From the NCBI GenBank assembly GCA_020348445.1, contig CP070751.1:4462970-4516000 (forward strand): 53,031 nucleotides of DNA, read 5' to 3'. The position numbers and the translations under genes are program-made. The notes beneath the pieces are model-generated. The model did no database searches and was not told where the DNA came from. It was given only the letters and a program-made list of their open reading frames with translations. Source of the DNA: Thermoplasmata archaeon. Lineage in GTDB: Archaea > Thermoplasmatota > Thermoplasmata > GCA-020350865. This document shows positions 13,586-43,012 of the stretch, piece after piece. Each line of letters begins with the position of its first letter. Position 1 is the stretch's first letter.

Positions 13586-13587
13586 TC

Positions 13588-22429: not shown

Positions 22430-24901
22430 ATGAGACTCAGGAGGGTTGGTACGGATAATAAATTGTCCTCTATAGTAATCGTAAGCATGCTGGTTGCAGG
22501 GGGATTTATCGGTTTTATAAATCTTTATAGCAAAGATGCCCATGGCACTTTCGTCAGCGGAATAATATACGACGGCTCGGGAGGTCCTTGGACAATTGCA
22601 GGCAATCCGTATATCGTGGTAGGTGATGTAACAGTTCCTGAAGGAGAAACACTTACAATTGAGCCAGGTGTGGAGGTCAAATTTGATGGACCTTGGGATA
22701 TATTTGTCGATGGCACTCTCATAGCCATTGGCAATGAAACCCATAGGATTAACATAACTTCCAACATGCTTACTCCCGATATTTCTGATTGGAGACATAT
22801 TGAGATACATTCTACAGGATATGCAGAAATCAAATACTGTGATATATCTTATGCCATAAATGGTATCAGATCCTTAAGCTCATCAAACAATATTATTGCC
22901 CATAATAATATATGGAACAATGCTGAGGGAATCTACCTTTTTGCCTCCTCAAACAATACCATATCCAATAACAACATTTCGAACAACGAGATTGGCATTA
23001 CTTTTCGGGAATCATCTAACAACTTCATGATAAACAATAACATAACGAACCATAGAATAGGAAACTATCTTAGGGATTCATCAAACATTACAATAACAAA
23101 CAACAATTTCTATGACGATGGGATTTATATTCAAGGAGAAAAGCTATCCCATTTTAACTCTCATAACATATCAAATGATAATTCAGTAAATGACAAGCCT
23201 CTCTATTATTATAAGGATTGCACCGGTATTACTATCGATGACCTACCGGTGGGTGAGCTTATACTCGCCAACTGCACAGATTTTGTTGTGAACAATACAC
23301 AGATAGACAATACCGAAATAGGAATAGAGGTAGCATACTCAACTAATATCTCCATTTCAAACAACACTCTTTCATCGCTGTATTTGGGCGGTCTTCTTCT
23401 CGATTCATCGTCAAATAATAGAATTGTAAGCAACCATATTTCGAACAGTGATGATGGTATCGGAATTGAACAATCATCGAACAACAATATTATAGCTGAC
23501 AACAATATTTCATCGATCAACTATGTGGGTATCCTCATTGTGGCATCATTTAACAACATGATTACAAACAATAAACTATCTAGCTGTTGGATGGGTATTC
23601 AAATCGGTGGGAACTGGTTAGATAACTCGTCGAACAACATCGTTTTAGGCAATAATTTCTCAGAAAATATGTGGGGTATCTATGTTCATGGAACATCGGA
23701 AAACGAAATAGCTTGTAACAATTTCTCAGGTAATGATGGCGGTATCGCTTTCCAATCATCATCGAAAAATAATATAATTAGCAACACTATCTCAAATAAT
23801 GATAGGGGATGCAATTTTGAAGGATCCAAATTTAACGTCATTTCAAACAACATTATAACGAACAATGGGGACGGAATCGATATTCGAAACTGGTCGGATA
23901 ACAACGTAATCACAACGAACATTGTATCATACAACAATAAAAACGGCATCTATATATACGGGTCATATTACAACAATATCGCGGGAAACAGTATCTCTCA
24001 CAATTATAAGGGTATGAATTTCTCTCAGGCTGTTAAATATACTGAAGTAAGAGGAAATAACATCTCCAACAATGATTATGGCCTCTATATAGGCTGGACA
24101 TTCGACAATCTGATCTATCATAACAGCTTCATTAATAACACAATCCAAGCGTATGATGAAACACCAAATAAAAACCAATGGGACAACGGCTATCCTTCAG
24201 GAGGCAATTACTGGTCTGATTTCGATGAATCAAGTGAAGGAGCGTACGATGATTATAATGGAGAAGGTCAAAACATTTTGGGAAGCGACGGCATAGTCGA
24301 TAACGGGACCATCGGAGGTGGAGGAAAGAATCCCTATGAGATCGATGTTGATGCCAAGGACAACTACCCGCTTATCGAGCCCTACAAGAACTATATGATT
24401 TTAAAGCAGGGCTGGAACTTAATCTCTCTACCTCTGATTCAGGTAGAGCAAAACCTTGCAGAGGTATTAGAATCGATTGACGGGTCTTACGATGCGGTCC
24501 AATGGTATAATATCACTGATGCAAGAGACCCCTGGAAGCATTACAAGGTAGGCAAGCCTTATGGAAACGATTTATTTGAGTTAAATGAAAAAATGGGCTT
24601 TTGGATTCATATCACTCAGCCTGGAGACACGATATTCTTCTATAATGGAACCAGACCAACAGAGAACCAGACTATCCCCCTTCACCCAGGTTGGAACATG
24701 GTTGGCTATCCCTCGATGAGCAATAGGGACAGGACCACGGCCTTGAATAACATCACCTTTGGTACGCATGTGGATGCGATCTGGACCTATAATTCAGCAA
24801 GACAAAGATGGGAGAAGATAGGATCATCAGATTATTTCGAGGTCGGTAGGGGATATTATATCCATGCTAAAAGTAAGTGTGTTTGGGAGGTCCCGCGTTG
24901 A
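22430..24901 (+). CDS. Secreted gene A: NosD/CASH parallel beta-helix protein with type I C-terminal domain (GWNLISLP module x2)
   Basis: Signal peptide; Asn-rich GI-x-L-xx-SSNN coils; GGNYWSD; ILKQGWNLISLPL; PGWNMVGYPS. No TM anchor. Confidence 0.85.
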   Translation: MRLRRVGTDNKLSSIVIVSMLVAGGFIGFINLYSKDAHGTFVSGIIYDGSGGPWTIAGNPYIVVGDVTVPEGETLTIEPGVEVKFDGPWDIFVDGTLIAIGNETHRINITSNMLTPDISDWRHIEIHSTGYAEIKYCDISYAINGIRSLSSSNNIIAHNNIWNNAEGIYLFASSNNTISNNNISNNEIGITFRESSNNFMINNNITNHRIGNYLRDSSNITITNNNFYDDGIYIQGEKLSHFNSHNISNDNSVNDKPLYYYKDCTGITIDDLPVGELILANCTDFVVNNTQIDNTEIGIEVAYSTNISISNNTLSSLYLGGLLLDSSSNNRIVSNHISNSDDGIGIEQSSNNNIIADNNISSINYVGILIVASFNNMITNNKLSSCWMGIQIGGNWLDNSSNNIVLGNNFSENMWGIYVHGTSENEIACNNFSGNDGGIAFQSSSKNNIISNTISNNDRGCNFEGSKFNVISNNIITNNGDGIDIRNWSDNNVITTNIVSYNNKNGIYIYGSYYNNIAGNSISHNYKGMNFSQAVKYTEVRGNNISNNDYGLYIGWTFDNLIYHNSFINNTIQAYDETPNKNQWDNGYPSGGNYWSDFDESSEGAYDDYNGEGQNILGSDGIVDNGTIGGGGKNPYEIDVDAKDNYPLIEPYKNYMILKQGWNLISLPLIQVEQNLAEVLESIDGSYDAVQWYNITDARDPWKHYKVGKPYGNDLFELNEKMGFWIHITQPGDTIFFYNGTRPTENQTIPLHPGWNMVGYPSMSNRDRTTALNNITFGTHVDAIWTYNSARQRWEKIGSSDYFEVGRGYYIHAKSKCVWEVPR

Positions 24902-25145
24902 GGAAGAAAATTCAATCAATCATAATCTGTTTAATACTTATTTTCGCTATCTTTACTACTATTGATTTGGTATTTGAATTTCCACTTACTTCTGGAAGCA
25001 CAACAATTTACGTTCCCACCAATTATCCTACGATACAGGAGGCGATAAACGCGGCCATAGATGGGGATACTGTCTATGTTTACAGCGGGGCCTATTTTGA
25101 AAATGTAATAGTGGACAAAACAATAAATCTGACTGGAGAAAATAA
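24179..25145 (+). repeat. ~1 kb direct repeat, copy 1 (A C-terminus + B N-terminus); copy 2 at ~26215-27180
   Basis: Constant 2036 bp offset. 24212-24309 vs 26248-26345 match at 97 of 98 nt. Similarity continues across the TTGA gene junction. Confidence 0.85.
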
Positions 25146-26937
25146 GGATAACACGACAATCGAAGGTGTTGGAGACGTGATTCACGTCGCAGCTAATTGG
25201 GTAAATGTCTCGGGTTTTACTGTCAAAAACGGCTCGACGGGAATAGATCTTTACGAAGTTAATAACTGTAAGGTTTTTAACAACATCGCCTCCACAAATG
25301 ACTTTCATGGCATCAAGTTTACCAGATGCATAGATAGCGATATCACTAATAACACAGTCTTAAATAGCCATACCGGCATCAGCCTCTCCCAATCTTCTTA
25401 CAACGATATCACTGGAAACAAAGTTTCGGAAAATAATTATGGAATCGCTCTCCATGATGCCAATGGGAACAATATAACAGGCAATATTGTTTATTCAAAT
25501 AACGATTTTGGCATATGGTTACATGGCTTCACCGATAGTAATTGCATTGTTGATAACAATGTTTCATTTTGTGGTAAAATTGGAATCTACCTCTCCGGGA
25601 CCGTTGGGATTACCCTCAGAAATAACACGATGAAATATAACGGAATCCGGATCGATGGAGGAGACGTTCAGCACTGGAACACCCACAATATCGATACCTC
25701 CAACACAGTAAACGGCAAGCCCTTGCAATACTGGGTGAATCGAACTAGAGGTAAAGTACCTGCAGGGACGGGACAGGTGATCCTTGCCAATTGCACAAAT
25801 GTGATAATAGAGGGACAAGAGCTTATAAATTGCTCTATTGGCATTCTTCTTGGTTTCTCATCATCCAATATTATCCTCGCAAACATTGTTTCCTCAAATA
25901 CTTATGAGGGAATCCGCCTTTTTAAGTCGAATAACAACACAATAGTTAATAACAATGTTTCTTCAAATTCTGGATTTTATGGAATCCGGATTCATTATTC
26001 CGACAAGAACAATATCACAGGTAACTTCATCTACTTTAACTATGTGGGCATCGTTTTTTATGAGTCAAATTACAATCTAATAACTTATAATACTGTATTT
26101 TTAAATGATGTTTATGGAATACACCTTGGATATTCATACAATAATACTTTCTACCACAATAATTTTATTGATAACTCAGATCAAGCCATCGATGAGTCAA
26201 ATAACGGTAACCGATGGGATAATGGCTACCCATCAGGCGGTAATTATTGGTCTGATTTCGATGAATCAAGTGAAGGGGCGTACGATGATTATAATGGAGA
26301 AGGTCAAAACATTTTGGGAAGCGACGGCATAGTCGATAACGGGACAATTGGAGGAGGGGGAAAGAACCCCTATGTGATAGATTCGGACTCCTGGGACAAT
26401 TACCCCCTTATCGAGCCCTACAATAATTATATGATTTTAAAGCAGGGTTGGAACCTTATTTCTCTACCACTGATCCAGGAAGAGCAAAACCTTACAAAAG
26501 TGCTTAAATCCATCAATGGATTGTATGATGCTGTCCAATGGTATAATATTACCGATACGAGAGATCCCTGGAAGCATTACAAAGTAAGCAAGCCTTACGG
26601 AAACGACCTTTTCGAGATAAATGAGAAAATGGGTTTTTGGATTCACATCACTCAGCCAGGGGACACGATCTTCTTCTATAACGGCACCAGACCAACAGAG
26701 AACCAGACAATCACCCTTTACCCAGGTTGGAACATGGTTGGCTATCCCTCATTTAACAATAGAGACAGAACCACGGCTTTAAATAACATCACCTTTGGTA
26801 CGCATGTGGATGCGATCTGGACCTATGATTCTCATATTCAAAGATGGGAGAAGATTGGGCCATCTGATTATTTCGAGATTGGAAGAGGGTATTATATCCA
26901 TGCTAAAAGTAAGTGCGATTGGGAGGTCCCGTGTTGA
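24898..26937 (+). CDS. Secreted gene B: NosD beta-helix protein with type I C-terminal domain
   Basis: TTG start overlapping the A stop after GGAGGT; IYVPTNYPTIQEAI; GGNYWSD; C-terminus nearly the same as A. Confidence 0.85.
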   Translation: MRKKIQSIIICLILIFAIFTTIDLVFEFPLTSGSTTIYVPTNYPTIQEAINAAIDGDTVYVYSGAYFENVIVDKTINLTGENKDNTTIEGVGDVIHVAANWVNVSGFTVKNGSTGIDLYEVNNCKVFNNIASTNDFHGIKFTRCIDSDITNNTVLNSHTGISLSQSSYNDITGNKVSENNYGIALHDANGNNITGNIVYSNNDFGIWLHGFTDSNCIVDNNVSFCGKIGIYLSGTVGITLRNNTMKYNGIRIDGGDVQHWNTHNIDTSNTVNGKPLQYWVNRTRGKVPAGTGQVILANCTNVIIEGQELINCSIGILLGFSSSNIILANIVSSNTYEGIRLFKSNNNTIVNNNVSSNSGFYGIRIHYSDKNNITGNFIYFNYVGIVFYESNYNLITYNTVFLNDVYGIHLGYSYNNTFYHNNFIDNSDQAIDESNNGNRWDNGYPSGGNYWSDFDESSEGAYDDYNGEGQNILGSDGIVDNGTIGGGGKNPYVIDSDSWDNYPLIEPYNNYMILKQGWNLISLPLIQEEQNLTKVLKSINGLYDAVQWYNITDTRDPWKHYKVSKPYGNDLFEINEKMGFWIHITQPGDTIFFYNGTRPTENQTITLYPGWNMVGYPSFNNRDRTTALNNITFGTHVDAIWTYDSHIQRWEKIGPSDYFEIGRGYYIHAKSKCDWEVPC

Positions 26938-29900
26938 GGATGAAAATTCGATCAATCATAATCAGTATTATTCTTATTTTTACTATCTTTACCACAGTTG
27001 ATTTGGTTTTTGAATTTTCACCTTCTTATGGAAGCGCTACAATTTATGTTCCTAATGATTATCCCACGATACAGGATGCGATAAATGCAAGTAAGGATGG
27101 GGATACAGTATATGTCTTTAGCGGGACTTATTACGAAAATGTTGTGGTAAATAAGACCATTGACTTGATAGGAGAGGATAAGGAAACCACAATAATTGAT
27201 GGTGAATGGAGTGGAGTTGTTATCAATGTGAGTGCAAATTGGGTGAACATCACAGGATTTACAATCACTAGATCCGAAGGAGAGTATAAATGTGCAGGAA
27301 TAAAACTTTACAATGTCCATAACTGTAGGCTCGTAAACAATAATGTTACATCGAACGGTGCCCGCGGCATCTATCTCTATTATTCCAGCTTTATCAACAT
27401 AATAAGCAACACTATAACATCGAACTACGGAGACGGTATATATCTATATTTTTCAGATGAAAATAACATAATAGGCAATAACGTTTCAGACAACAGATTT
27501 AGTTCTGGCATCATCCTTCATAATTCATCAAACAACGCGATCGAGAACAACATCGTCTCGAATAACGAGGGATTTGGCATCTATCTCTATCAGTCCAGTC
27601 TGAACAACATCATAAACAACACCTGCAACTCGAACTCTTATCATGGCATATCACTAGGTGGCTCATCAAGCAATATGATTGCTAACAACACCTGCTCAAA
27701 CAATTCGGAGATTGGAATAGATATCAATAATTTCAGTCCAGACAACAACATCATAGACAATACCGTCACCTCAAACCTTAGGGATGGCATCTTTATCTAC
27801 TACAGTTCGAATGGGACCAACATCATCCACAACAATGTTTTGAACAACGATTGGTCAGGCATCTCAATCTATCACTCCTCAAATAATATAATAACAGATA
27901 ACACTGTTTATTTCAACAATTTTTACGGCATTGTTCTTTCTACATACCCCGGTCCTTTTCCTTACGAAACTGCAAACAACGAGGTAACAAACAACAATGT
28001 TATGGACAATGGAGATACCGGTATTTATCTTTACATATCACGAAACAATAACATCACTGGTAATAATATATCAAATAATAAGAATGGTACGCATCTTTAC
28101 GCACTTTCAGACAACAATATAATAACAGACAATATAATATCATCGAACAAATATGATGGGATCCATATTGAGTTTGCATCAAAATACAACATAATAACAA
28201 ACAATAGGATATCATCGAATAATAATGGCATATCTATTGAAATGATCTCAACAGACAACAATATCTTGAACAACGATATTTCAGATAATTTAGAGGGCAT
28301 AAATGTTACAACTTCAAGTTACAATAATATGTCTGGCAACAACATCTCAAACAACGAGCACGGCATTAGGTTTTTCAAAGCAAATGATAACAGAATAATA
28401 ACCAACAATGTTTCTTTAAATAGTTTAGATGGGATTCGCCTTCTCTCTTCTTCCAAGAGGAACAGCATCATAGACAATACCGTTTTCTCGAACAGCAATT
28501 ATGGAATCTATATAAATGACTCTTTGAATAACAATATTTACCACAACAACATCATAACCAATACAATTCAGGCTTACGATGGTACGAATAATGGGAATCA
28601 ATGGGATGATGGCTATCCTTCAGGCGGTAACTACTGGAGTGATTGGACGACACCAGATGATTACCATGGGCCAGATCAAGATATTCTGGGAAGCGACGGT
28701 ATAGTTGACAATGGGACAGTTGGAGGCGGTGGTAAGAATCCCTATGTTATCGATTCAGATTCCCAGGATAACTATCCTTTGACAACTCCGCACCCAATGT
28801 TACTAACCCTTTACATCAAAGCAAGCGCGGATGGTAGGGATGCCATACTCTATTGGGACCAACCCTCGATTTTTGGAGTGAGTCATTATTTGATATACCG
28901 CTCAGAAGACCAGACCAACTTCGATTTTAATAATGTGTGGGTAAATACCAAAACAGACACACAACCAGGGGAATCTTTATCCAATCCCCTCAGAACCACG
29001 TGGATTGATTTCAATGCCTCGGTTCCTGGCAATAAAAATTACAGGGAACAATACTATTATGTTATACAGAGTGTGTATGAATCAGGCAAGATGAGCCCGA
29101 GCAGCCGAACTGTTGGAAAATGGACCAAGTCATTCTCCCAGGGAATATCAACCTTCTCACTACCCTTAGAGCCCATCGATCCTATATACGTGGACTATTG
29201 CACCCATTCCATGAATGCCACTTATATCAGATACATTGATCCCAATCAGCATATTTGGCGCCAGCACAACTTTGGCGATGGTACTAAAAACAACACACAG
29301 ATGAAACTTGGTGAAGGGTACGAGATAAAACTAAGCAACCAGACTGTATTCACGTTTACAGGTTTACCAGGTGCCATGATAAGTTATTATGGCAACAGTG
29401 GATTCCTTGGTTTTGATCCAACTACCGAGGCTGATTGTCTTGAAGTTACAATCCAAGAAAATGGAGATGTAAACGTAACGTGGGAGGATCCAGGGAGTAT
29501 GGGCCCTGGGGATTATTATTACGAGATTTATTATTCATACAAAAGAGATGGCTTCTTTGGATACCTTGATTTCGATTATTCCCAGGTCTGCTCCCCTGTT
29601 GGTTTTGGAACCAATAATGTCACCCATGTAGGTGCACAAGCAAATGATCCAGGAAAAAGGTTGTATTATATGGTGGTTCCTTTCAATGCCCTCGGTATAA
29701 GAGGAACAAGCACATACAGCATCGGAATCTGGACTGAGGAATATCTGTCTCAGTATGATACAATGGGTATACCACTGAAACTGGATGTTGACCATACAGC
29801 AGACTGGTATTGCGACAACATCCCTGATACTGTTGGGATTAATTATTTCGATTACGATGGGCAGAGGTGGTGCTGGCATTCCAAAAGGATGTCTGAAGGT

Positions 29901-29984
29901 GCTTACGATACTGTTTTGAAGATGACGGAAGGTTACCAAATATCGACTTCGGACACCACAGAATTCACATTTATTGGGGTGTAG
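26934..29984 (+). CDS. Secreted gene C: NosD beta-helix protein with type II C-terminal domain (FN3-like + module, x2)
   Basis: GTG/TTG start (26931/26934) overlapping the B stop; long beta-helix; ends GYQISTSDTTEFTFIGV. Confidence 0.85.
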   Translation: MRMKIRSIIISIILIFTIFTTVDLVFEFSPSYGSATIYVPNDYPTIQDAINASKDGDTVYVFSGTYYENVVVNKTIDLIGEDKETTIIDGEWSGVVINVSANWVNITGFTITRSEGEYKCAGIKLYNVHNCRLVNNNVTSNGARGIYLYYSSFINIISNTITSNYGDGIYLYFSDENNIIGNNVSDNRFSSGIILHNSSNNAIENNIVSNNEGFGIYLYQSSLNNIINNTCNSNSYHGISLGGSSSNMIANNTCSNNSEIGIDINNFSPDNNIIDNTVTSNLRDGIFIYYSSNGTNIIHNNVLNNDWSGISIYHSSNNIITDNTVYFNNFYGIVLSTYPGPFPYETANNEVTNNNVMDNGDTGIYLYISRNNNITGNNISNNKNGTHLYALSDNNIITDNIISSNKYDGIHIEFASKYNIITNNRISSNNNGISIEMISTDNNILNNDISDNLEGINVTTSSYNNMSGNNISNNEHGIRFFKANDNRIITNNVSLNSLDGIRLLSSSKRNSIIDNTVFSNSNYGIYINDSLNNNIYHNNIITNTIQAYDGTNNGNQWDDGYPSGGNYWSDWTTPDDYHGPDQDILGSDGIVDNGTVGGGGKNPYVIDSDSQDNYPLTTPHPMLLTLYIKASADGRDAILYWDQPSIFGVSHYLIYRSEDQTNFDFNNVWVNTKTDTQPGESLSNPLRTTWIDFNASVPGNKNYREQYYYVIQSVYESGKMSPSSRTVGKWTKSFSQGISTFSLPLEPIDPIYVDYCTHSMNATYIRYIDPNQHIWRQHNFGDGTKNNTQMKLGEGYEIKLSNQTVFTFTGLPGAMISYYGNSGFLGFDPTTEADCLEVTIQENGDVNVTWEDPGSMGPGDYYYEIYYSYKRDGFFGYLDFDYSQVCSPVGFGTNNVTHVGAQANDPGKRLYYMVVPFNALGIRGTSTYSIGIWTEEYLSQYDTMGIPLKLDVDHTADWYCDNIPDTVGINYFDYDGQRWCWHSKRMSEGAYDTVLKMTEGYQISTSDTTEFTFIGV
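28674..29984 (+). repeat. ~1.3 kb direct repeat, copy 1 (C C-terminus); copy 2 at 32102-33412
   Basis: Constant 3428 bp offset. For example, 29022-29105 is identical to 32450-32533 (84 nt). Confidence 0.88.
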
Positions 29985-30067
29985 AACCCAAGCTTTTTCG
30001 AGCGGAAAATCTTATAATCTATTAAAACAATGTGAAATTGTTCTGTGCAGGATAATGGAGGGGGCGT

Positions 30068-33000
30068 ATACATACGAATAATAACTCCTGGAAGAGAGAA
30101 AAGAGGGCTAAATCGCTAAAACGATCATGTTTCATAGTTGTTGTGCTTTTTATTATATCAATTACGATGCTGATTGTTCCTGATGAAAATCTGATACCAA
30201 CCTCCAGCGGGACAACAATCTATGTTCCCACAGATTATCCTACGATACAGGAAGCAATAAACGCTGCAAAAGATGGGGATACAGTCTATGTTTATAGCGG
30301 GACATATTACGAGCGTATAGGGGTGAATAAAGCTATAAATCTGATTGGAGATGGCCCTGACTCGACGACTATATGCGGACAAAGTGCAGGTCAAACAGTT
30401 TATGTAAACACCGATTGGGTGAATATCACAGGATTCACAATCACCACTGATAATCCTAATGTTGAGGGATTAATTATATATTCTGATCATGTAACAATTG
30501 CACGCAATATATTTACGATCAGCGAGATCGGCATCTATATCCAGAAATCCAGTGCAATTACCATGATGGATAACATTATGTTACATAATGGAATTTATAT
30601 TGAGGGTTATTCCCTTGAGCACTGGAACACACATGAAATTGACTTTACAAACACCGTAAATGGCAAGCCAATTTGGTATTTAAAGGACCTAACAGAGGGC
30701 GTAGTCCCATCTAATGCTGGACAAGTTATTCTTGCCAACTGCACGAACGTCAATGTAGTGGGACAAGAAATTACCGATGTTACCGTGGGTATTTCTTTAG
30801 GTTTTTCTTCTCATAATAATATCACGAACAATAATATCACATCATGCAGGCGCTACTATGGTATGGGTCTCATTTATTCAAATGGGAATAACATTATGGG
30901 TAATCTCATCAGCACCCCCCGTGGCGATGGCTTCTATCTCAACCATTCCAGCTGGAACAACATCATAGGCAATAACATTTCGGATAACAGAGGCGGTGAT
31001 GGTATACATCTCAGGGATTCCTACGAAAATCGCATTATTGGCAACACCCTTTTTTCGAATATACGAAAGGGTATTTGGGTCTATTATTCAGATGGTAACT
31101 ATATCGCAGACAACAATATATCTTGGAATGGGTGTGGTATTGAGGTTCTGCGCTCATCTTACAACTACATCGAAAACAACACCTGCGTACGGAATCATAA
31201 TGATGGTATTGTGTTCGGTTTGGCTCCTAGAAACTCTGCTAAAAACAATCATTGTTACAAGAACGGCAATGGCATCTTTATCGCTACTTATTCCAACGAG
31301 ACCGATGTCATAGGCAACTACATTTCGTATAGCAGAAACGACGGTATTCCTGTCAAGTTCTCCTGCAGAAACAACATCATAGACAATACAATCATCTCGA
31401 ACTCCAGAAAGGGTATCTATTTGTGGTTTTCCCACGAGAACTACTTTTTTAACAACAGCATCACCTCAACCGAGGAATCCGGTATCTATTTCCTCCAATC
31501 CAGGAGGAACATCATCCATGACAACAAAATTCAGAATAATAACATACATGGCATGTATCTTTATGCACTTTCAAACAACAATATAATAACAGACAATATA
31601 ATATCATCGAACAAGTACGATGGCATCCTTGTTGAGTATTCATCAAACAATAAGATAAAGCGCAACGATATCTCCGACAATTTAGGAGGATTAAATCTTT
31701 CCACACCACCAGTGTCCAATTTAAACTCAAGTTACAATATAATATCAGACAATAATATTACTAACAACGAGCGCGGCATCTGGCTTTATTCAGCATTGAC
31801 CAACGCAATAATAGGCAACAACATTTCTCTTAACAATGATGATGGTATCCGCCTTCTCACTTCATCTGATATGAACGGCATCATTGGCAATACCATCTTC
31901 TCAAATAACGGGTATGGCATCTATTTAAGCGAGTCATCACGCAATAGCATTTATCACAACTACATCTTAAATAATGCAATTCAAGCTTTTGATTATACAA
32001 TTGATACAAATCGATGGGATATTGGCTATCCTTTGGGCGGTAATTTCTGGTCTGATTTCGATGAACCTAGCGAGGGAGCCTATGACGATTATCAAGGATC
32101 AGATCAAGATATTTTGGGTAGCGACGGTATAGTTGACAACGGGACGATTGGAGGTGGTGGTAAGAATCCATATGTGATCGATTCAGATTCTCAGGATAAC
32201 TATCCATTGGTCATACCACCAGTAATGACACCGACTCTTCACATCAAAGCAAGTGCGGATGGTAGGGATGCGATACTCTATTGGGACCAACCCTCGATTT
32301 TTGGAGTGAGTCATTATTTGATATACCGCTCAGAAGATCAAACAAATTTCGATTTTGATGATGTGTGGGTAAATACCAAAACAGACACACAACCAGGGGA
32401 ATCTTTATCCAATCCCCTCAGAAACACGTGGATTGATTTCAATGCCTCTGTTCCTGGCAATAAAAATTACAGGGAACAATACTATTATGTTATACAGAGT
32501 GTGTATGAATCAGGCAAGATGAGCCCGAGCAGCAGAACTGTTGGAAAATGGACCAGGTCATTCCCCCGGGGAATATCAACCTTCTCGCTCCCCTTGGAGC
32601 CCATCGATCCTTTGTACGTCGACCATTGCACCCAGTCAATGAATGCTACTTATATCAAATACATGAGTCCTGATCAGCATACTTGGCGCCAGCATAATTT
32701 CGACGATGGTATCAATAACAATACACAAATGATACTGGGAGAAGGCTATGAGGTAAAACTAAGTAACCAGACTGTATTCACGTTTACAGGTTTACCAGGT
32801 GCCATGATAAGTTATTATGGCAATGGTGGATTCCTCGGTTTTGATCCAACTACCGAGGCTGATTGTCTTGAAGTTACAATCCAAGAAAATGGGGATGTAA
32901 ACTTAACGTGGGAGGAACCAGGGAGTATGGGCCCGGGAGATTATTATTACGAGATATATTTTTCAAACAAAAGAGATGGCTTCTTCGGATACGTTGATTT

Positions 33001-33535: not shown

Positions 33536-35791
33536 ATGAAAAAAAGAATAAGCCTGGTTTGGATCATATGTTTGCTTTTAGCCAATGGAATTTTGGTGTT
33601 TCTTCCTTTAGAACCGGAAGTCGCTAGCGCAAGGAAAATCTGGTATGTGGGCTCAGGTGATGGAAACGATTCCGCTACAATTAACGGTGGAATAACATTA
33701 GCAGATGATGGGGATACGGTTTTCGTACACAGTGGAATTTACTATGAAAATGTTATGGTGTATAAAACAATAGATCTAATCGGGGAGGATAGAAAGACCA
33801 CAATAATCGACGCAGGTGAGGTAGGGAGCGCTATTTATGTGGAATGTGATTGGGTGAGTATTACGGGATTTACCGTTAAAGGATGTGGTGGTACTGGTTA
33901 TAATGGGGGTGGGATCAAACTTTATCAAGCCCAGAATTGCACCATTTATCACAATAATGCATCAAACAATCTACACAATGGTATATTTTTGGAGGAATCT
34001 TTGAATAACGAGATAAGGGATAACATTATTACTTGGAATGATTGGGACGGCATCGAACTTTTTTATTCACCATACAACAGGATAATTAACAACAGCTTGT
34101 CATTTAATTCCAGGGATGCCATAAGAATCTGGAACTCGAATCTAGTAGACAACAAACCAGCCTCTAAAAACAATATCATAAAGAACAACAACGTTTCTAA
34201 TAATCCGAATCGGGGTATCATAATAGAGGGGCCACCATTTCCTTCCTGCAATAAAATATTAAACAATATTGTCATATCAAACGAAAAAGGTATCGCGCTT
34301 TTCGATTGCTTTGATAATATTGTCGCAAGAAATACAGTCTTGTACAACGATCACGGCATTCGCCTTTCCTCCTCCTCCTCAAACAATCGCGTTTTCCATA
34401 ACCAAATAATAAGCAACACTCATCAAGCATTTAATTGGGAGAATAACAACTTCTGGGATGATGGTTATCCCTCTGGTGGTAACTACTGGTCCGATTATAC
34501 AGGGATAGATATTAACAGCGGACCGAATCAGGATCAACCTGGCAGTGATGGTATCGGAGACACACCATATACAGCCATCGAAGGGCCCTCAGGTGGCCAG
34601 GATAACTATCCGCTTATGGATCCCGGTGGAGGATACGAACCGGAATTTCTACCACCCGAGCTTTGTATTACTGTGAGTTCAAATGGTAATGATGTGATAT
34701 TATATTGGGATAGCCCCCCATCATCCCCGGGAACTACCTATCAAATATACAGATCGACATCCCAAATTGGATTCAATTTTAATTCCCCTCATGATACCGC
34801 CTTCCAATCGCCCTGGACAGATAGTAACGCTGCAAACCCAGGACAACTCAATTACGAAGAACAGTATTACTATGTGATACGAACCAGAAATATGCAAGGG
34901 GAAATGACAAGAACCAGCAGAACGGTGGGTAAATGGACTAGGGTATTTTCGCAGGGAGTCTCGTCTTTTTCCCTTCCACTGGAACCTATTGACACCCTTT
35001 ATACGGACGATTTAACATCCATTACGAATGCAGAATATATCAAATATATAGATCCTATTACCCGTACTTGGCGACAGCACAATTTTGGTGACAGCGCCCT
35101 CAACAATACAGAAATGAAATTAGGCGAGGCCTATGAGATAAAATTCAGCCAGCAATCAAAACACACGTTCACGGGTTTGCCTGGTGCCATGATATTATAC
35201 GATGACGACATCGGATTTTCAGGATTCGACCCAGACACAGATGCACAAAGCCTCAATATTTCTATCGAATCAGACGGGGATGTGAGGCTTTCTTGGCAGG
35301 CGCCAACAGGTATGGGAACTGGAGATTATTATCTGGTGTACTGCTCAAATACCAGGGACGGCTTTTTTGGTGACCTTAATTCGGGTTTTTCCATCGTCGA
35401 CAGCGTTGGTTTCGGGATAAATACGGCAATGCATGAAGGTGCTAGGGCGAATGATCCAGGGACCAGGTTGTACTATATGGTGCTCCCAGTGAACGCAACC
35501 AGGGTCATGGGTGCGGGAACCTACAGCGTCGGGATTTGGACCGAGAAATATCTGTCTCAATACGATACAATAGGGATACCACTGAAACTAGAAAACAACC
35601 AAACTGTGGACTGGTATTGCGACAACATCCCTGATACAGTGGGAATCAATTATTTCGATCACAATGGGCAGAGATGGGCATGGCACGCAACGAGGATGCC
35701 CGAAGGTACCTACGATACTGTCTTGGAAATGACGGAAGGCTATCAAATATCGACTTCGGACACCACAAAATACATATTTATCGGGATATAA
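33536..35791 (+). CDS. Secreted gene E: NosD beta-helix protein with type II C-terminal domain
   Basis: Signal peptide; GGNYWSDY...DGIGDTPY; ends GYQISTSDTTKYIFIGI. Confidence 0.85.
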   Translation: MKKRISLVWIICLLLANGILVFLPLEPEVASARKIWYVGSGDGNDSATINGGITLADDGDTVFVHSGIYYENVMVYKTIDLIGEDRKTTIIDAGEVGSAIYVECDWVSITGFTVKGCGGTGYNGGGIKLYQAQNCTIYHNNASNNLHNGIFLEESLNNEIRDNIITWNDWDGIELFYSPYNRIINNSLSFNSRDAIRIWNSNLVDNKPASKNNIIKNNNVSNNPNRGIIIEGPPFPSCNKILNNIVISNEKGIALFDCFDNIVARNTVLYNDHGIRLSSSSSNNRVFHNQIISNTHQAFNWENNNFWDDGYPSGGNYWSDYTGIDINSGPNQDQPGSDGIGDTPYTAIEGPSGGQDNYPLMDPGGGYEPEFLPPELCITVSSNGNDVILYWDSPPSSPGTTYQIYRSTSQIGFNFNSPHDTAFQSPWTDSNAANPGQLNYEEQYYYVIRTRNMQGEMTRTSRTVGKWTRVFSQGVSSFSLPLEPIDTLYTDDLTSITNAEYIKYIDPITRTWRQHNFGDSALNNTEMKLGEAYEIKFSQQSKHTFTGLPGAMILYDDDIGFSGFDPDTDAQSLNISIESDGDVRLSWQAPTGMGTGDYYLVYCSNTRDGFFGDLNSGFSIVDSVGFGINTAMHEGARANDPGTRLYYMVLPVNATRVMGAGTYSVGIWTEKYLSQYDTIGIPLKLENNQTVDWYCDNIPDTVGINYFDHNGQRWAWHATRMPEGTYDTVLEMTEGYQISTSDTTKYIFIGI

Positions 35792-35828: not shown

Positions 35829-36073
35829 TTTCTGAATAAAACTCCTCTCTTTCCTCTTTTTTATAGTAGGAGATAACCTACACCAATTGTTTAGGGATTG
35901 TGTGCAGGTCTTTTCTCGCATGTCGAGGCTCTATGTATATAGATTGTTGAGTATGAATCCTTAATAATCTAAGGATATTACATAAATTATAAATAGGACA
36001 GGTTTTATAAATAAGATTGTCGGTCTCAAATCGCTTTATTCAAAATAAAAAACTGATTATAGAGGAGGGAATA

Positions 36074-39000
36074 ATGCGTAAAAAGGGTTCATTCGTGCGA
36101 GTAAAATCTTCAATTGATGATTATAAAGAATTATGTAGGAGCATTTTTACTTATATTATTGTAGGTTTATTTATTTGTATGGAATTGTTTATCGGAGCGA
36201 TATATGCCGATGATCCGTTTGAGCCGAATGTAAGAGTTAATGAGCTTGTTATTGTTCCTTCTACTGAAACTCAGAGCAACCCTTCTGTAGGAGTAGATAA
36301 CGCCGGTAACATTTATGTCGCTTGGGGGGATTTTCGGGAAAGCAATTATGATATCTATTTTTCGAAATCTACCGACGGTGGAAACACTTTCTCAGTCAAT
36401 AAAAGGATCAATGATGATAATGGAGAAAGGTGGCAATATAACCCTTCCATAGCAGTCGGTTCCATGGGTAATATCTATATCATTTGGGTGGATGAACGAA
36501 GCGGCAAACCTGAGGTCTATTTTGCGAAATCTACTGACGGTGGAAATACTTTCTCAGTTAATAAGAGGGTCAATGACGGTGCTGGAAATGTAGGGCAAGA
36601 TTCCCTATCTATATCGGTAGATGGTATAGACAATATCTATATAGTATGGATGGATACTCGAAACTTCGATACCAGCCTCTATTTTTCGAAATCCACTGAT
36701 GGTGGGAACACTTTCTCAGCCAATAAGAAAGTCAATGATATTACCGGAAATTCCTGGCGGGAACATCCGTCCATTGCAATCGATAGTACAAGCAATATCT
36801 ATGTTACTTGGATGGATGAACGAAGTGGCAATGCCGACATCTATTTTGCTAAATCCACTGATGGTGGGACCACTTTCTCAAACAATAAGAAGATTAACGA
36901 CGATGCTGGAAATGCAGAGCAATTTACCCCTTCAATAGGAGTAGGAGAGTCTGATAACATTTTTATCGCCTGGGGGGATTTTCGAGATAGTAATTCTGAT
37001 ATCTATTTTACGAGCTCTAACGACGGTGGGAACTCGTTCTCACCAAATAAAAAGGTCAATGATGATGTTAGTAATACAAAGCAATATGAACCTTCTATAG
37101 CAATCGATAACGGGGGCAACATCTATCTTGCTTGGACAGATCAACGAAATGGTAATTACAATATCTATTTTGCGAACTCTACTGATGGTGGGAACTCGTT
37201 CTCACCAAATAAAATGGTCAATGACGATGGTGGTCCTAGCCAATTTCAACCTTCTATAGCAATCGATAACGAGGGCAACATCTATCTTGCTTGGACAGAT
37301 CAACGAAATGGTAATTACGATATATATTTTGCGAGTTCTACCGATGGTGGAAATTCTTTCTCACCAAATAAAATGGTCAATGATGATGTTAGTATTCCTA
37401 GGCAGTATGAACCCTCTATGGCAATCGGTAACAACGGTAACATCTATCTCGCCTGGGCAGATGAACGAAATGGAGACTCCGATATATATTTTGCGAGCTC
37501 TACCGATGGTGGAAACTCGTTTTCACCAAATAAAAAGGTCAGTGACGATACCGTAAATATGATACAACTACACCCATCCATAGCAATCGATGGCGCTGAC
37601 AATATCTATATCGCTTGGTGGGATTATCGACACGGTTTCTTCGGTGATATCTATTTTGCGAAATCCACGGATGGTGGGAACTCTTTCTCAGCAAATAAGA
37701 AAGTCAATGATGATGTTATGAATGCTGCACAGGATAAGCCCTCAATAGCGGTAGATGGTCTTGGCAATATCTATATCGCTTGGGGGGATAATCGTAGTGG
37801 CAATTATGATATATATTTAGCGACCTCTACTGATGGTGGCAACTCTTTCTCAGTAAACAAGAAAGTAAATGATGATGTAATAGGTGCGAAACAAAAATAC
37901 CCATCCATAGTAGCCGATAGCGCGGGCAATATCTATATCACTTGGATGGATGATCGAAGCGGCAATTATGACATCTATTTTGCGAGATCCACTGACGGTG
38001 GAAACACTTTCTCAACAAATAAAAAGGTCAATGACGATTCTGGAGATAACAGACAAACTGATCCCTGCGTAACAGTCGATACCTTGGACAATATATATAT
38101 CGCTTGGAGGGATGGTCGAAACGGCAATTATGACATATATTTTACGAGAACTACCGACGGTGGAAACACTTTCTCAATAAATAAAAAGGTAAACGACGAT
38201 GCTGGAAATAATGACCAACGAGATCCATGTATAGCAGTCGATAGAGTGGGTAATATATATATCGCTTTTAGAGATGATCGGAATGGTGATTATGACATCT
38301 ATTTTGCGAAATCTACTGACGGTGGAAACACTTTCTCCCCTAATAAAAGAGTCAATGACGATATTGGGAGTAATATACAACTTTCTCCATCTATAGGGGT
38401 AGATGACGGAGGCTATATCTATATAGCATGGGAGGATAGGCGAAACGGTAGTGGTGATATTTACCTCACATCAACCGGACCGATACTTGCCCTTTTAATT
38501 ACAGAAATTCAAGACAGTCCGGATGGTAACGAATGGATTGAAGTTTACAATCCTGCTTTGGCAGCTATAAATCTGCAAGATTACAAGATAAGCCTTGATT
38601 ATGGAACAACATTCATTGATGGTTCATGGAGTAACCCTCTGATTAATTTTGGGGAATATAGTATTTGGACGCCAACTGTAGTAGGTTTATTGAATGACGA
38701 AGGTGCCTTGATTTCCATCCACAATTTTACTCACCCAAAAAAATCTATGTTTGATGTTGTTGGATATGGGCAAAATGGCATAGCACCTGATCCTGTAGCT
38801 GGAGAATCGTGTGCTAGATACTGGGACACTATTAACTTAAAATACAAGGATTCTTGGTCAAGAAACGAATCAACAGGTCCATCGCCAGGTGCAGTCAACA
38901 ACAATCCAGAAGTGAATCCAACACCTTTAATAATGTTGAACGAAGTAAGTTTTTATCCTTTTATACCACAGTATGGTTTTATAGAACTGATTTATATCGG

Positions 39001-42000
39001 CGATAACAGTATAGACATAAGCAATTACAAGATTGTGTGCGATAGCGAGTACATAATCCCAGGAGGAACAATATTAAGTAAAAGTGATCCTTTCTTCGGA
39101 GTTAACCAGCTAAATTATCCATCTGGTTTCGATTTAGATGACGGAGTAGTGAACGGTGATAATGTCTATTTATATGACGATACAGGCGCATTGCTTGATA
39201 TGGTGGGTTGGAATTCTTCACATCTTCAGGGTATGAGTGTTCGCAGGATTCCAGATGGGTATGGCACTTATCAAGGTTATAACGACACAACATCAGAAGC
39301 TGCAGGCTGGGTATTTAATATCCCGCTTAAGGTTCAAGTGAGCGAGATATCTGATAATGATTCTATGGTAGCACAAATCGAGGTCTATAATCCAAGGTAT
39401 CCTTTCATCAACTTCAATGTTGGTTTCAGTTTTGAATCTGCTTCCTCTGGAACATTAGCAGGTGTATGGTCAATCTCTACTGCAAATGAAGATGGATACG
39501 CTCTTTTCAATGTGACTACTCCCAATGGTTTAAACACTGAAGGAGATAACATCCGCTTTTACCTGTATGATGTGCTTATCGAGGAAATCTCTTATGGTCA
39601 GAAAGGTGTGGTTCCTGATCCTCTAACTGGAGAATCCACAGCCCGCTATTGGAACACCACTCTCTTAGAATATACTAGCTATTGGAATAGAGAAAAAACT
39701 CCAACCTTCGGAGCACAAAACGATGTTCTACCTCCAAACTTAAATCCATCAGTTGTATTAAACGAGATAATGTTCAATCCAAGTTCACCCGAAGACGGGT
39801 TTGTGGAAATCTATCTAAAATTTGGCTGGGTTGATATCACTGGTTATAAGATCGTTGGTGACTCTGAATACATCTTTCCCCAGGTGACGGAATTACCCTC
39901 GGATGATCACTTATATTATATTACACAACCCATGGATCCAGGTTTCTTCGCCGCCTTGAATCCATCAGGTGACAACGTGTATCTATACGACGATTATGGG
40001 TCACTCCTTGACATGGCCGGGTGGAGTTCATCCCATCAGCAGGGAAAGACGATGTGTCGCATTCCCGAGGGAAATGGCACATTTGACGGATTCAATGATA
40101 CATCATCCATTGCGGCGGGTTGGATCTTTGGCTGCAGTCCTACGATAAGGTTGATTGATATAACTGCCAATGAGATCGTTAAAATTGGTAATTTAAGCGA
40201 TGTGTTGTATTTCAACCTTACAATAACTAATATGCATTTTCTCAATGATACTTTCCCCATATTCAACTTCACTATCAATGGATATTCTGTTGCAATCCTC
40301 GATAACACATTAACGTATATTATTGATGAGATTTTTTTACTCGCCAGATCTTCCGTTGACATTAAGGTCAAGGTCAAACCTATCCTTCAGACGCCCGTTG
40401 TCGGATGGGATAACATCACCATAACGATTCAATCCGAGAATAACTCCCTTTATTGGAGTATTATAATTCTTCAGGTATTTGTTATATGCCCCCCTGTTGC
40501 TGATGCGGGCCAAGATCAAATCGTTTATGAAAGTGCAATAGTGTATTTCGATGGAACAGAGAGCTACGATCCAGACTACCATTGGCACAAGTTGGATGTC
40601 AACTTTGCCACCGATAGTGCTTTGTATCTGCGTACAATCGACCCCATCGGCCCAGAGGATGGTGCATGGGAAGGTGGAGTTCAGGAATGGGTGAATTTCA
40701 CTTCACCATTCCCCTTCTGGATCGGTAAGAAGTCTGGCCATTTGGGCCAGGGACCAACAGGTCATGAATACACCTACTACTGGAAGATGCACGAGACAGG
40801 GAATTTTACACTATACTTTAGTGGGCGTAACGGCGATTTCTATGCCAATGTGTCTGATGAGACTGACGGTATCCCTGTCATATCAGGGCTCTTTGTCCAA
40901 AACTCCGATCCTTTTATTGAGATCGTACGACAACTTTACGATGGGCACATCTATCGTTTGGACATCTATGATACAGTCAGCAAATCCGTTAGCTTTCCCA
41001 AGGATCTGGACGTTATCTTCAAAATTAAAGAGACTGAAATACTACTAACCCCAAATCGGGACAGCCTGGTCTACTATATCTCTCAAAATCCATTGGACAT
41101 GGCAGTTGAAGGACCTGGGGTGAGGGATATCCAATTCTATTCCCGAAGCATACAGGAGTTCTACGCATACTACGCCTTAAAACTGGATCACTCTGAAGTG
41201 GAGTTTAGTGGAGGAGAGCTGGGATCAACAGATCCTCCATATAATACAGGAATAGCACCTAGCGAGTATAAAGCTACGACCCTGAACATCTCGGATGAAC
41301 TGATTTATCTCTGGGATTTCGATGCAGATTTCGATTCTGATGGCGATGGAAACTTGACAAATGACATTGATGCCACCGGGTTAACACCAATTCATATTTA
41401 CGGTGATAACTGGTTATATACAGTTACATTGACAGTAATAGATGTTCAAGGCCTATCAGATATCGATATATGCTATATTACAGTGAACAACGCTGCACCT
41501 ACAATTGAGCCCTTCGGGCCTTTCACAGTTTACAGAGGGGATCCTCTAACAATCGACGCAAATGCCACTGACCTTGGTAGCGATGATCTGACGTTCACAT
41601 GGGAATTTGAGTCCGGGCCAACAATTATGAACTTATACTACAACGACGGTGTCGGCCTTGACCCATATCCAAGTCCTTGGGGAATCTTTCCATTCTCCAG
41701 AACCGATACAGTGCAACACACATATGACGCAATAGGTATTTACACGATAAACCTCACGGTAGAGGATGATGATGGGGGAATATCATATTATACGACCACC
41801 ATCGTGGTGATTAACATCCCGATACTTCCCCCCATCCTATTTATAAACGTTAGCCAGGATGGGAAGGACGTGATTCTTTACTGGGACCCGCCCTCTATCC
41901 CGGACCTTGATCATTATTTGATATACCGTTCGACGTCACAAATCTCCTTCGATTTCAATAAAGTATGGGTGGATACTTCAATAGATAACGAAACTGGCGA

Positions 42001-43012
42001 GCCAGGCCCCATACCTCTTAGGACTATGTGGAACGATACATACGCCGCATTCTTGGGAGATGAGACAAACTACGAGGAGGAATATTATTACATAATAAGA
42101 GCCGTGAATTCCTTTGGTGAAGTGAGCGCAACCAGCAGAACGGTTGGGAAATGGACAAAATCGTTCCCAAAGGGAGTGTCGACCTTTTCCCTACCTTTGG
42201 AACCAATCGAACCTTTTTACACTGACTATTACACCTCGACTATGAATACCCAATACATCAAGTACATGGACTCTAATACACACCGCTGGCGACAACATAA
42301 TTTTGGAGATCAGAACACAAACAATACTGAAATGAAATTGGGTGAAGGTTATGAGGTAAAATTCGATAGCCAGACTATCTACACCTTCACAGGTTTGCCT
42401 GCTGCCATGATAAGTTACAATGACGATAATGGATTTACTGGATTTAATTACATTTCGGAGGCAAAAAGCCTTATGGTTGAAGTTTTACCAAATGGAGATG
42501 TAAATCTGACATGGCAGGAACCAGCAAGTATGGGAATTGGCGATTGGTATGAAATATATTATTCAAACACGACAGATGGTTTTTTCGGAACTTTTAATAA
42601 GGATTATTTTCTCCTTTGTGCCCCTATTTATTTTAGAAATTTTAGCGCAACTCACATAAATGCTCGGGCCAACGATCCTGGTGCACGGTCATACTATTTG
42701 GTTGTTCCGTTCAGTGCCAGTGGTATTAGAGGTGCGAGCACCTACAGCATTGGAATTTGGACAGAGGAATATACCTCAGGATATGACACGCTTGCCATAC
42801 CACTGAAACTTAAAGATAACTATACTGCAGATTGGTACTGTGATAATATACCCAACACCGAGGGAATCAATTATTTCGATATTAGCAAACAGCGGTGGTA
42901 CTGGCACTCAACCATAATGCCTGTTGGAGCATTTGATACAAATTTGGTTATGACCCAAGGGTACCAAATTTCAACTTCGGACACCACAAAATTCACATTT
43001 ATTGGGGTATAA
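36074..43012 (+). CDS. Secreted gene F: 14-blade Asp-box (BNR) propeller region, (LTD-a/LTD-b) x2, split PKD, second PKD-like domain and type II C-terminal domain
   Basis: 13 x STDGGN(T/S)FS; lamin-tail-like ITEI/LNEV...EVYNP; PVADAGQDQ...YDPD / YLWDFD...YTVTLTV; ends GYQISTSDTTKFTFIGV. Start ATG 36074 after GAGGAGGGG. Confidence 0.85.
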   Translation: MRKKGSFVRVKSSIDDYKELCRSIFTYIIVGLFICMELFIGAIYADDPFEPNVRVNELVIVPSTETQSNPSVGVDNAGNIYVAWGDFRESNYDIYFSKSTDGGNTFSVNKRINDDNGERWQYNPSIAVGSMGNIYIIWVDERSGKPEVYFAKSTDGGNTFSVNKRVNDGAGNVGQDSLSISVDGIDNIYIVWMDTRNFDTSLYFSKSTDGGNTFSANKKVNDITGNSWREHPSIAIDSTSNIYVTWMDERSGNADIYFAKSTDGGTTFSNNKKINDDAGNAEQFTPSIGVGESDNIFIAWGDFRDSNSDIYFTSSNDGGNSFSPNKKVNDDVSNTKQYEPSIAIDNGGNIYLAWTDQRNGNYNIYFANSTDGGNSFSPNKMVNDDGGPSQFQPSIAIDNEGNIYLAWTDQRNGNYDIYFASSTDGGNSFSPNKMVNDDVSIPRQYEPSMAIGNNGNIYLAWADERNGDSDIYFASSTDGGNSFSPNKKVSDDTVNMIQLHPSIAIDGADNIYIAWWDYRHGFFGDIYFAKSTDGGNSFSANKKVNDDVMNAAQDKPSIAVDGLGNIYIAWGDNRSGNYDIYLATSTDGGNSFSVNKKVNDDVIGAKQKYPSIVADSAGNIYITWMDDRSGNYDIYFARSTDGGNTFSTNKKVNDDSGDNRQTDPCVTVDTLDNIYIAWRDGRNGNYDIYFTRTTDGGNTFSINKKVNDDAGNNDQRDPCIAVDRVGNIYIAFRDDRNGDYDIYFAKSTDGGNTFSPNKRVNDDIGSNIQLSPSIGVDDGGYIYIAWEDRRNGSGDIYLTSTGPILALLITEIQDSPDGNEWIEVYNPALAAINLQDYKISLDYGTTFIDGSWSNPLINFGEYSIWTPTVVGLLNDEGALISIHNFTHPKKSMFDVVGYGQNGIAPDPVAGESCARYWDTINLKYKDSWSRNESTGPSPGAVNNNPEVNPTPLIMLNEVSFYPFIPQYGFIELIYIGDNSIDISNYKIVCDSEYIIPGGTILSKSDPFFGVNQLNYPSGFDLDDGVVNGDNVYLYDDTGALLDMVGWNSSHLQGMSVRRIPDGYGTYQGYNDTTSEAAGWVFNIPLKVQVSEISDNDSMVAQIEVYNPRYPFINFNVGFSFESASSGTLAGVWSISTANEDGYALFNVTTPNGLNTEGDNIRFYLYDVLIEEISYGQKGVVPDPLTGESTARYWNTTLLEYTSYWNREKTPTFGAQNDVLPPNLNPSVVLNEIMFNPSSPEDGFVEIYLKFGWVDITGYKIVGDSEYIFPQVTELPSDDHLYYITQPMDPGFFAALNPSGDNVYLYDDYGSLLDMAGWSSSHQQGKTMCRIPEGNGTFDGFNDTSSIAAGWIFGCSPTIRLIDITANEIVKIGNLSDVLYFNLTITNMHFLNDTFPIFNFTINGYSVAILDNTLTYIIDEIFLLARSSVDIKVKVKPILQTPVVGWDNITITIQSENNSLYWSIIILQVFVICPPVADAGQDQIVYESAIVYFDGTESYDPDYHWHKLDVNFATDSALYLRTIDPIGPEDGAWEGGVQEWVNFTSPFPFWIGKKSGHLGQGPTGHEYTYYWKMHETGNFTLYFSGRNGDFYANVSDETDGIPVISGLFVQNSDPFIEIVRQLYDGHIYRLDIYDTVSKSVSFPKDLDVIFKIKETEILLTPNRDSLVYYISQNPLDMAVEGPGVRDIQFYSRSIQEFYAYYALKLDHSEVEFSGGELGSTDPPYNTGIAPSEYKATTLNISDELIYLWDFDADFDSDGDGNLTNDIDATGLTPIHIYGDNWLYTVTLTVIDVQGLSDIDICYITVNNAAPTIEPFGPFTVYRGDPLTIDANATDLGSDDLTFTWEFESGPTIMNLYYNDGVGLDPYPSPWGIFPFSRTDTVQHTYDAIGIYTINLTVEDDDGGISYYTTTIVVINIPILPPILFINVSQDGKDVILYWDPPSIPDLDHYLIYRSTSQISFDFNKVWVDTSIDNETGEPGPIPLRTMWNDTYAAFLGDETNYEEEYYYIIRAVNSFGEVSATSRTVGKWTKSFPKGVSTFSLPLEPIEPFYTDYYTSTMNTQYIKYMDSNTHRWRQHNFGDQNTNNTEMKLGEGYEVKFDSQTIYTFTGLPAAMISYNDDNGFTGFNYISEAKSLMVEVLPNGDVNLTWQEPASMGIGDWYEIYYSNTTDGFFGTFNKDYFLLCAPIYFRNFSATHINARANDPGARSYYLVVPFSASGIRGASTYSIGIWTEEYTSGYDTLAIPLKLKDNYTADWYCDNIPNTEGINYFDISKQRWYWHSTIMPVGAFDTNLVMTQGYQISTSDTTKFTFIGV
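36280..38470 (+). repeat. Intragenic tandem repeats of ~162 bp (54 aa): 13 Asp-boxes, 14 blades
   Basis: GA(C/T)GGTGG cores near 36371, 36534, 36696, 36856, 37019, 37180, 37340, 37501, 37666, 37828, 37991, 38152 and 38314. Confidence 0.88.

Follow-up and report, generated by a model that had tools for sequence, protein, structure and literature searches.

A terminal two-module domain of exported Thermoplasmata proteins, a candidate module for retention at the cell surface

Exported proteins are equipped with shared C-terminal features in several described systems. In Listeria, the GW modules of InlB, Ami and Auto are tandem Gly-Trp modules of ~80 residues at the C-terminus of secreted proteins that are otherwise unanchored, and their non-covalent binding to lipoteichoic acid, a membrane-linked glycopolymer, keeps these proteins on the cell. 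The C-terminal domains (CTDs) of the type IX secretion system (T9SS) of Bacteroidota are portable, beta-rich domains of ~70-100 residues, in which tens to hundreds of diverse exported proteins per genome end. Dockerins, internally duplicated and mostly C-terminal as well, dock 70-200 enzymes per genome on a cell-bound scaffold through cohesins. The adhesin-like proteins (ALPs) of methanogens such as Methanobrevibacter form a large exported paralogue set of beta-helix, PKD and CARDB type that accounts for several percent of an archaeal genome, and they are thought to be anchored by C-terminal transmembrane segments or pseudomurein-binding repeats. Here we describe a further C-terminal domain, hereafter the tail, that ends the products of six clustered genes (A to F) in a stretch of 53,031 nucleotides (the window) from contig CP070751.1 of a Thermoplasmata archaeon. 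The tail is a lineage-wide, uncatalogued C-terminal domain of Thermoplasmata.

The source genome is a single scaffold of 5.16 Mb, 82% complete, from an uncultured archaeon whose nearest named relatives, according to the NCBI labels, are metagenome-assembled genomes (MAGs) of Thermoplasmata or Methanomassiliicoccales. The original prediction, made from the letters of the window, had placed six co-oriented genes for exported proteins at positions 22430-43012, and all six open reading frames (ORFs) are present on the + strand. The genes and the parts of two representative tails are as follows, the start positions of genes B, C and F being approximate:

22430-24901, + strand: gene A, leader, NosD-type beta-helix (Pfam NosD, 1e-58) and type I tail
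24374-24898, + strand: type I tail of A, 175 residues, ending in VWEVPR-stop
~24383-24655 and ~24662-24898, + strand: modules 1 and 2 of the A tail
24898-26937, + strand: gene B, leader, beta-helix and type I tail (26410-26934); database form of 679 residues
26940-29984, + strand: gene C, leader, beta-helix and type II tail; database form of 1014 residues
28782-29981, + strand: type II tail of C, 400 residues
~28794-29111, ~29112-29375, ~29394-29720 and ~29721-29981, + strand: FN3-1, module 1, FN3-2 and module 2 of the C tail
30143-33412, + strand: gene D, beta-helix and type II tail (32210-33409), with the start at the first canonical codon
33536-35791, + strand: gene E, leader, short beta-helix and type II tail (34616-35788)
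36074-43012, + strand: gene F, leader, BNR propeller repeats, three LTD, PKD and type II tail (41804-43009)

Searches of the whole proteins against Pfam and NCBIfam (NCBIfam at E<=0.01) assigned NosD or parallel beta-helix repeats to A-E, and BNR propeller repeats, three lamin-tail (LTD) domains and PKD domains to F. The same searches returned no family over the last 175 residues of A and B or over the last ~400 residues of C-F. Genes A, B and C are closely packed, and D, E and F have each their own upstream spacer. The database form of A has 823 residues and starts at the ATG at 22430, and the TTG start of B overlaps the TGA stop of A.

The 175-residue tails of A and B share 88% identity, and those of C-F share 57-90% over ~400 residues. 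Type I tails consist of two copies of one module of ~85 residues, while type II tails consist of two copies of an FN3 domain followed by a module of that length. The tandem arrangement had been read from the window alone, and profile-profile comparisons built on alignments of all genome copies bear it out: module 1 matches module 2 in type I (HHalign 98.1%, E 1e-13) and in type II (99.1%, E 6e-19), and FN3-1 matches FN3-2 (98%, E 2e-13). Equally well founded was the near-invariant terminus of C-F, GYQISTSDTT(E/K)(F/Y)(T/I)FIG(V/I)-stop. The motifs proposed for the modules themselves, such as SLPL and GxG(Y/F)xI, fit loosely, since A deviates from them in both modules, with MGFWI in place of GxG(Y/F)xI in module 1 and PGWNMVGYPS in place of SLPL in module 2.

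We modeled both tails with AlphaFold2 from alignments of 22 (type I) and 32 (type II) paralogues. Both models are compact and confident (pLDDT 94.5 and pTM 0.88 for the type I tail of A, pLDDT 92.7 and pTM 0.91 for the type II tail of C), and all four modules follow the same b-b-a-b-b-b-b order and spacing. In the numbering of the alignment, W54, H56, K61, P62, N65 and D66 are invariant in the type I tail. The domains inserted in type II, at tail residues 4-117 and 206-320, adopt the predicted FN3 fold (VIA Z 8-10.3, rmsd 2-3 A over 82-95 residues; Foldseek E 3e-8), and residues 379-460 of gene E also give a weak Pfam fn3 match. In both models the last strand is an integral strand of module 2 (pLDDT ~95), which explains its conservation without any strand donation; the suggestion that the terminal strand is donated to a neighbor therefore gains no support from these models.

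The claim that one and the same module underlies both types of tail is harder to establish. Profile comparison of type I and type II was not significant, reaching 2% on whole domains and at best 29% on single modules. We searched the 5,804 genome ORFs of 100 residues or more with a hidden Markov model (HMM) of the type II module alone. Outside type II, its best matches were without exception type I carriers, with alignments that spanned the entire module; five of these carriers had an independent E-value (iE) <= 0.1, and the first unrelated ORF appeared at iE = 3. Because of this rank enrichment and of the identical predicted order and spacing of secondary structure, we accept the single module as a probable case of remote homology.

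The tail differs from each of the known systems introduced above. Unlike the GW modules, it has a b-b-a-b-b-b-b topology, an archaeal host and more than 100 carriers per genome, compared with a handful of GW carriers; Pfam GW (PF13457) did not match the tails, and there was no SH3-like chain among the structure matches, where weak ones can be missed. It is two to four times larger than the T9SS CTDs and far more conserved. Neither TIGR04183 nor PF18962 matched the whole proteins (NCBIfam E<=0.01) or the tails, VIA and Foldseek searches with the type I model returned no T9SS CTD chain (best Z 3.7), and we know of no outer membrane or T9SS in Thermoplasmata. Dockerins are calcium-binding helical modules of ~70 residues, whereas the tail is predicted to be almost entirely beta-strand; Pfam dockerin (PF00404) gave no match on the tails, no scaffold protein was found, and SLH (PF00395) did not match any of the six proteins. 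In contrast to the ALPs, these proteins have neither C-terminal transmembrane segments nor pseudomurein-binding repeats, and bear an unrelated, unnamed tail. The archaeosortase/exosortase signals PGF-CTERM and PEF-CTERM do not describe it either, as the tails reach the stop codon in a beta-strand (WEVPL or FIGV) with no transmembrane segment; one weak archaeosortase-like gene lies elsewhere in the genome. Families of carbohydrate-binding modules (CBMs) gave no match in Pfam or NCBIfam and no CBM chain was returned by the structure searches, which still allows for sugar binding.

Wider searches, in which a known family would have spoken against a new domain, gave the same picture. No family matched in Pfam searches of the tails (E<=10; E<=1 on 22 type I tails) apart from noise-level hits to DUF7189 and DUF1737 in 5/22 members, and NCBIfam returned nothing on 32 type II tails (E<=1). 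The profile search of PDB sequences retrieved solely designed Kelch-like proteins over ~30 residues, again noise. Compared with 350,542 PDB chains by Foldseek, the type I model had no match at E <= 0.001 (best E 0.04), and the best of 48,161 representatives in VIA-align were RCK_C domains at Z 3.7; for the type II model, the FN3 domains alone were matched in PDB. The closest clusters in the ESM Atlas are annotated 'hypothetical protein', with no Pfam family, and we did not find the domain described in full-text literature searches. The sole structure, predicted or solved, that matches the whole two-module type I unit is BFVD entry A0A8D9C8P8 (TM-score 0.63, E 1e-4, 16% identity), a 587-residue 'putative hemin binding protein' of an uncultured marine phage. 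Scans of IMG/VR found no relative. If the entry is truly viral, the phage could have taken over from its host a domain that binds the host envelope.

To place the six genes in their genomic context, we searched the whole genome with HMMs of both tails. Type I was found in 101 ORFs and type II in 40, with one ORF containing both, for a total of 140 proteins that take up 7.6% of the genome bases. These carriers fall in about 80 loci, of which the six-gene cluster is the second largest. The cluster is thus one part of a genome-wide and class-wide family, and the idea of a local six-gene system does not hold. Frequent internal positions, which would have contradicted a terminal domain, were not seen: the tail ends the protein in ~136/140 carriers. 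Most of the apparently non-terminal tails are due to scaffold gaps or to divergent last modules, and only about four are truly internal, one of them followed by a transmembrane segment. This last protein, of 1035 residues (G000:C1:3763363-3766470, + strand), has a divergent type I tail and then ~95 residues with a transmembrane segment (FSLLSFMLLVILVWIGGIM) and a short basic end. It is a rare membrane-anchored variant and could reveal which way the tail faces with respect to the membrane. The genome also has ORFs made of the tail only; these have no leader of their own, look like gene fragments and are uninformative on sorting.

The same position is maintained outside the source genome. Among homologues from other genomes and metagenomes, 201/201 end within 3 residues of the tail. 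Type I tails finish with WEVPL-COOH in 65/100 cases and type II tails with (T/I)FIG(V/I)-COOH in 67/101, the other ends being close variants. An exhaustive profile search of 1.84 billion representatives returned 13,152 type I clusters at E <= 1e-3, 5,433 at <= 1e-10 and 890 at <= 1e-30, and the tail was at the C-terminus in 148/150 of the best-matching representatives. We then measured the distribution within the class in a sample of 201 Thermoplasmata genomes from 30 families. Type I was present in 86/201 genomes and 21/30 families, often with dozens of candidates per genome, and was not found in several well-sampled families of that sample with small, complete genomes. Full-length type II is restricted to the genus of the source archaeon and about three other families. 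Type I tails also terminate giant proteins, as two open frames of 8,661 and 8,676 residues in a related genome end in one (G021:C11:82952-83458 and 108865-109371).

One type I tail gene seemed to be bacterial, as it lies in a segment with N-gaps (CP070825.1:1670139-1682330) labeled Candidatus Aminicenantes bacterium bin112. Its neighbors share 41-74% identity with genes of the source archaeon and include archaeal-type ribosomal proteins. We rejected this occurrence, as the segment seems to belong to Thermoplasmata and to have entered a bacterial MAG by mis-scaffolding. Wrong binning probably also accounts for labels such as WOR-1 bacterium or Altiarchaeales on some database proteins that bear the tail.

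The passengers to which the tail is attached are highly diverse, and the original prediction of a portable C-terminal domain on varied passengers applies to the whole genome. They include beta-helices with or without CARDB, PKD, LTD, VWA and WD40 proteins, BNR/SBBP and FG-GAP propellers, DUF7948 and peptidases of the M14, M28 and M23 families; external carriers add PQQ propellers and DUF11. Single-linkage BLAST clustering of the passengers was uninformative, as the PKD and LTD modules that they have in common merge all of them. Tails are far better conserved than passengers: identity is 88% for the tails of A and B and 46% for their passengers, 89% and 54%, respectively, for C and D, and 61% for the tails of C and F, whose passengers are unrelated. 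The dN/dS ratio of the tails is 0.09 for A-B (dS 0.73) and 0.18 for C-D, and between C and D dS is 0.32 in the tail and 1.86 in the passenger. Since the A-B tails combine a low dN/dS with a dS of 0.73, their conservation is due to selection and not just to recent copying. As judged from these substitution rates, the tails are under strong purifying selection, which dominates, together with some recombination.

Most carriers bear the features of exported proteins. An N-terminal hydrophobic leader is present in 121/140, and a small-x-small motif compatible with cleavage follows the apolar run in 104/120 leaders. The apolar runs have a median length of 18 residues genome-wide (quartiles 15-19) and could be uncleaved anchors in some carriers. 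The claim of leaders and no anchor on all six proteins was thus correct for the C-terminus, where A-F have no transmembrane segment, lipobox or PGF-type tail, and less so for the N-terminus, in view of these runs and of gene D, whose leader is a mere stub when read from the first canonical start. The frame of D is open further upstream (30040-30142) and encodes there a complete basic-plus-hydrophobic leader (KREKRAKSLKRSCFIVVVLF...) with no ATG, GTG or TTG. The genome has two or more further paralogues with the same kind of truncated-looking N-terminus (near 2237240 and 2040536), which may reflect a non-canonical start codon or a decaying leader. N-x-S/T sequons are 2.4-fold enriched, with 2.1-2.3 per 100 residues in tails and passengers and 0.88 in other ORFs; this excess fits exported glycoproteins, with a contribution of the Asn-rich composition.

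Several features together point to a common handle that acts after export: the tail keeps to the C-terminal end, is a rigid unit of two modules, is very strongly conserved, has no membrane anchor behind it, and is carried by more than 100 exported proteins of unrelated function, enzymes among them. The simplest account, which has in our estimate an even chance of being right, is that the tail is a non-covalent surface-retention or docking module. After Sec export and cleavage of the leader, the tail would bind one shared envelope component, which might be a receptor protein, a lipoglycan or a surface glycan. This would keep enzymes and binding proteins at the cell, where together they would make up a heterogeneous coat of glycoproteins, and the FN3 domains of type II would act as spacers or provide extra contacts. 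Support for retention comes from the strictly C-terminal position in three independent sets and from the lack of a transmembrane segment, lipobox or sortase-type signal after the tail, with one carrier that has a transmembrane segment there. Peptidase passengers would also gain from being retained on the cell. We suspect, by analogy with the binding of Listeria GW modules to lipoteichoic acid, that the target could be a lipoglycan or a surface glycan; in the case of a lipoglycan, GW modules would be the best analogy, in terms of functional likeness and not of homology. As background for the class rather than for the source lineage, cultured Thermoplasmatales have a membrane with a glucose/mannose tetraether lipoglycan and, in place of an S-layer, an unordered layer of glycoproteins whose composition is unknown (PMC12448462).

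Little is understood of how archaea that lack a canonical S-layer retain the enzymes and adhesins that they export, and about 13,000 protein clusters of uncultured Thermoplasmata from sediments are defined by the tail. A name and a model for it would improve the annotation of thousands of proteins now called 'hypothetical' or 'beta-helix repeat', and would let surface proteomes be predicted from metagenomes. A broader possibility, which we put forward tentatively and consider rather doubtful, is an undescribed archaeal attachment or sorting system, in which a dedicated receptor or machinery would recognize the new C-terminal fold on 50-140 proteins per genome; these proteins would jointly build the heterogeneous glycoprotein coat of S-layer-less Thermoplasmata. 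Such a system would be the functional archaeal counterpart of T9SS CTDs or of dockerin-cohesin pairs and, if true, it would be a new way of surface display in archaea with possible uses in protein display.

Several observations weigh against surface retention. The tail resembles no known anchoring module in sequence or structure (Pfam, NCBIfam and PDB searches), and neither the cohesin family PF00963 nor SLH domains had a match in the genome, which is 82% complete. Gene-neighborhood and co-occurrence checks found no binding partner. An array of two-Ig paralogues in the window was rejected as the tail receptor because its presence within the class does not follow that of the tail, which leaves the suggestion that tails dock on the neighboring array proteins unsupported. 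A second family, of small secreted proteins that we call IDAVGW, was rejected as a general partner because it neighbors carriers in the source genome only and not in the loci of relatives. In addition, an uncleaved N-terminal signal anchor could already hold the proteins and leave the tail as their distal end, and the strict terminal position could be in part the outcome of cassette duplication and recombination among paralogues, as the sequence comparisons hint.

If some carriers are anchored at the N-terminus, the tail being distal, a different function is favored, namely that of a lectin-like or adhesive module. The protein would then be N-anchored or released, and the tail would bind external polysaccharide, detritus or another cell with no role in anchoring. 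We regard this as unlikely. Apolar runs with a median of 18 residues are long enough for a membrane anchor, but the small-x-small motif in 104/120 leaders is compatible with cleavage. The conserved aromatic-rich motifs of the tail (GWN, W, GYW/GYY) are common in sugar-binding sites, yet no CBM or lectin family or fold was matched in Pfam, NCBIfam or the structure searches, and CBMs vary in position and copy number, whereas the tail is a fixed two-module unit that is terminal in >97% of cases. Finally, although many passengers are adhesin-like, one specificity on 140 proteins that include M14/M28/M23 peptidases, VWA and WD40 proteins is explained more easily by a self target than by a substrate.

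The tail could instead be a sorting or secretion signal, by which dedicated machinery would move the cargo to, or covalently attach it on, an outer envelope layer, perhaps with cleavage of the tail, as a counterpart of T9SS CTDs and PorU. We regard this hypothesis as distinctly improbable. It is favored by the conserved last residues (WEVPL; (T/I)FIG(V/I)) at a strict C-terminal position, but most archaea have a single membrane, for which a Sec leader suffices, and we found neither candidate machinery nor an evident processing site. The 40-100 or more diverse cargoes per genome are numerically similar to T9SS cargo sets, and presence or absence of the tail tracks family lines within the class, as expected with machinery; however, the tail is large (175-400 residues), conserved and well folded, T9SS CTDs are shorter, and TIGR04183 and PF18962 do not match. 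Self-association, with tails binding each other into a mosaic coat or multi-enzyme complexes without a separate receptor, is very improbable. In its favor, the tail is an internal pseudo-dimer whose modules are predicted to be fixed relative to each other (pTM 0.88-0.91), and pairs of this kind often make contacts between molecules as well; extreme conservation among paralogues would keep tails mutually compatible, and no partner was found. Against it, the models are closed, with the last strand integrated and neither an open edge nor a donor strand in sight, and a coat of this kind would still need a link to the membrane.

The two families tried as partners have features of their own. The two-Ig array occupies 8774-14571 (+ strand) of the window and comprises six genes whose products are anchored by a C-terminal transmembrane segment. 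Its full-length homologues are confined to the same genus and a few other families, and in the tail-rich families f9, f15, f17 and f20 it was present in 1/13, 1/5, 1/5 and 0/4, respectively. Elsewhere, only its second Ig domain and transmembrane segment match, at the C-terminal end of open frames of ~2,150-2,200 residues in many Thermoplasmata, which may be major envelope proteins.

IDAVGW proteins have 135-171 residues, a leader of the form ...SGSAVA and the terminus IYGPEIDAVG(W/Y), and there are 14 copies in the genome, for example at G000:C1:2240451-2240927(-), 2244003-2244509(-), 3174865-3175380(+), 3859245-3859721(-) and 4774140-4774643(+). Twelve of the 14 adjoin tail carriers, mostly upstream and co-oriented, and none lies in the cluster of the window. 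Other neighbor families, including ATPase-like, BcrAD/BadFG-like and winged helix-turn-helix proteins, were also set aside, as their association with the carriers looked incidental. Unrelated to the IDAVGW family, the product of a small ORF immediately upstream of gene A (21829-22302, + strand of the window) has a leader, a highly acidic region (EGDGEGEGEEEDTGDEE), a single transmembrane segment and a zinc-ribbon-like cytoplasmic tail with CxxC...CxxC.

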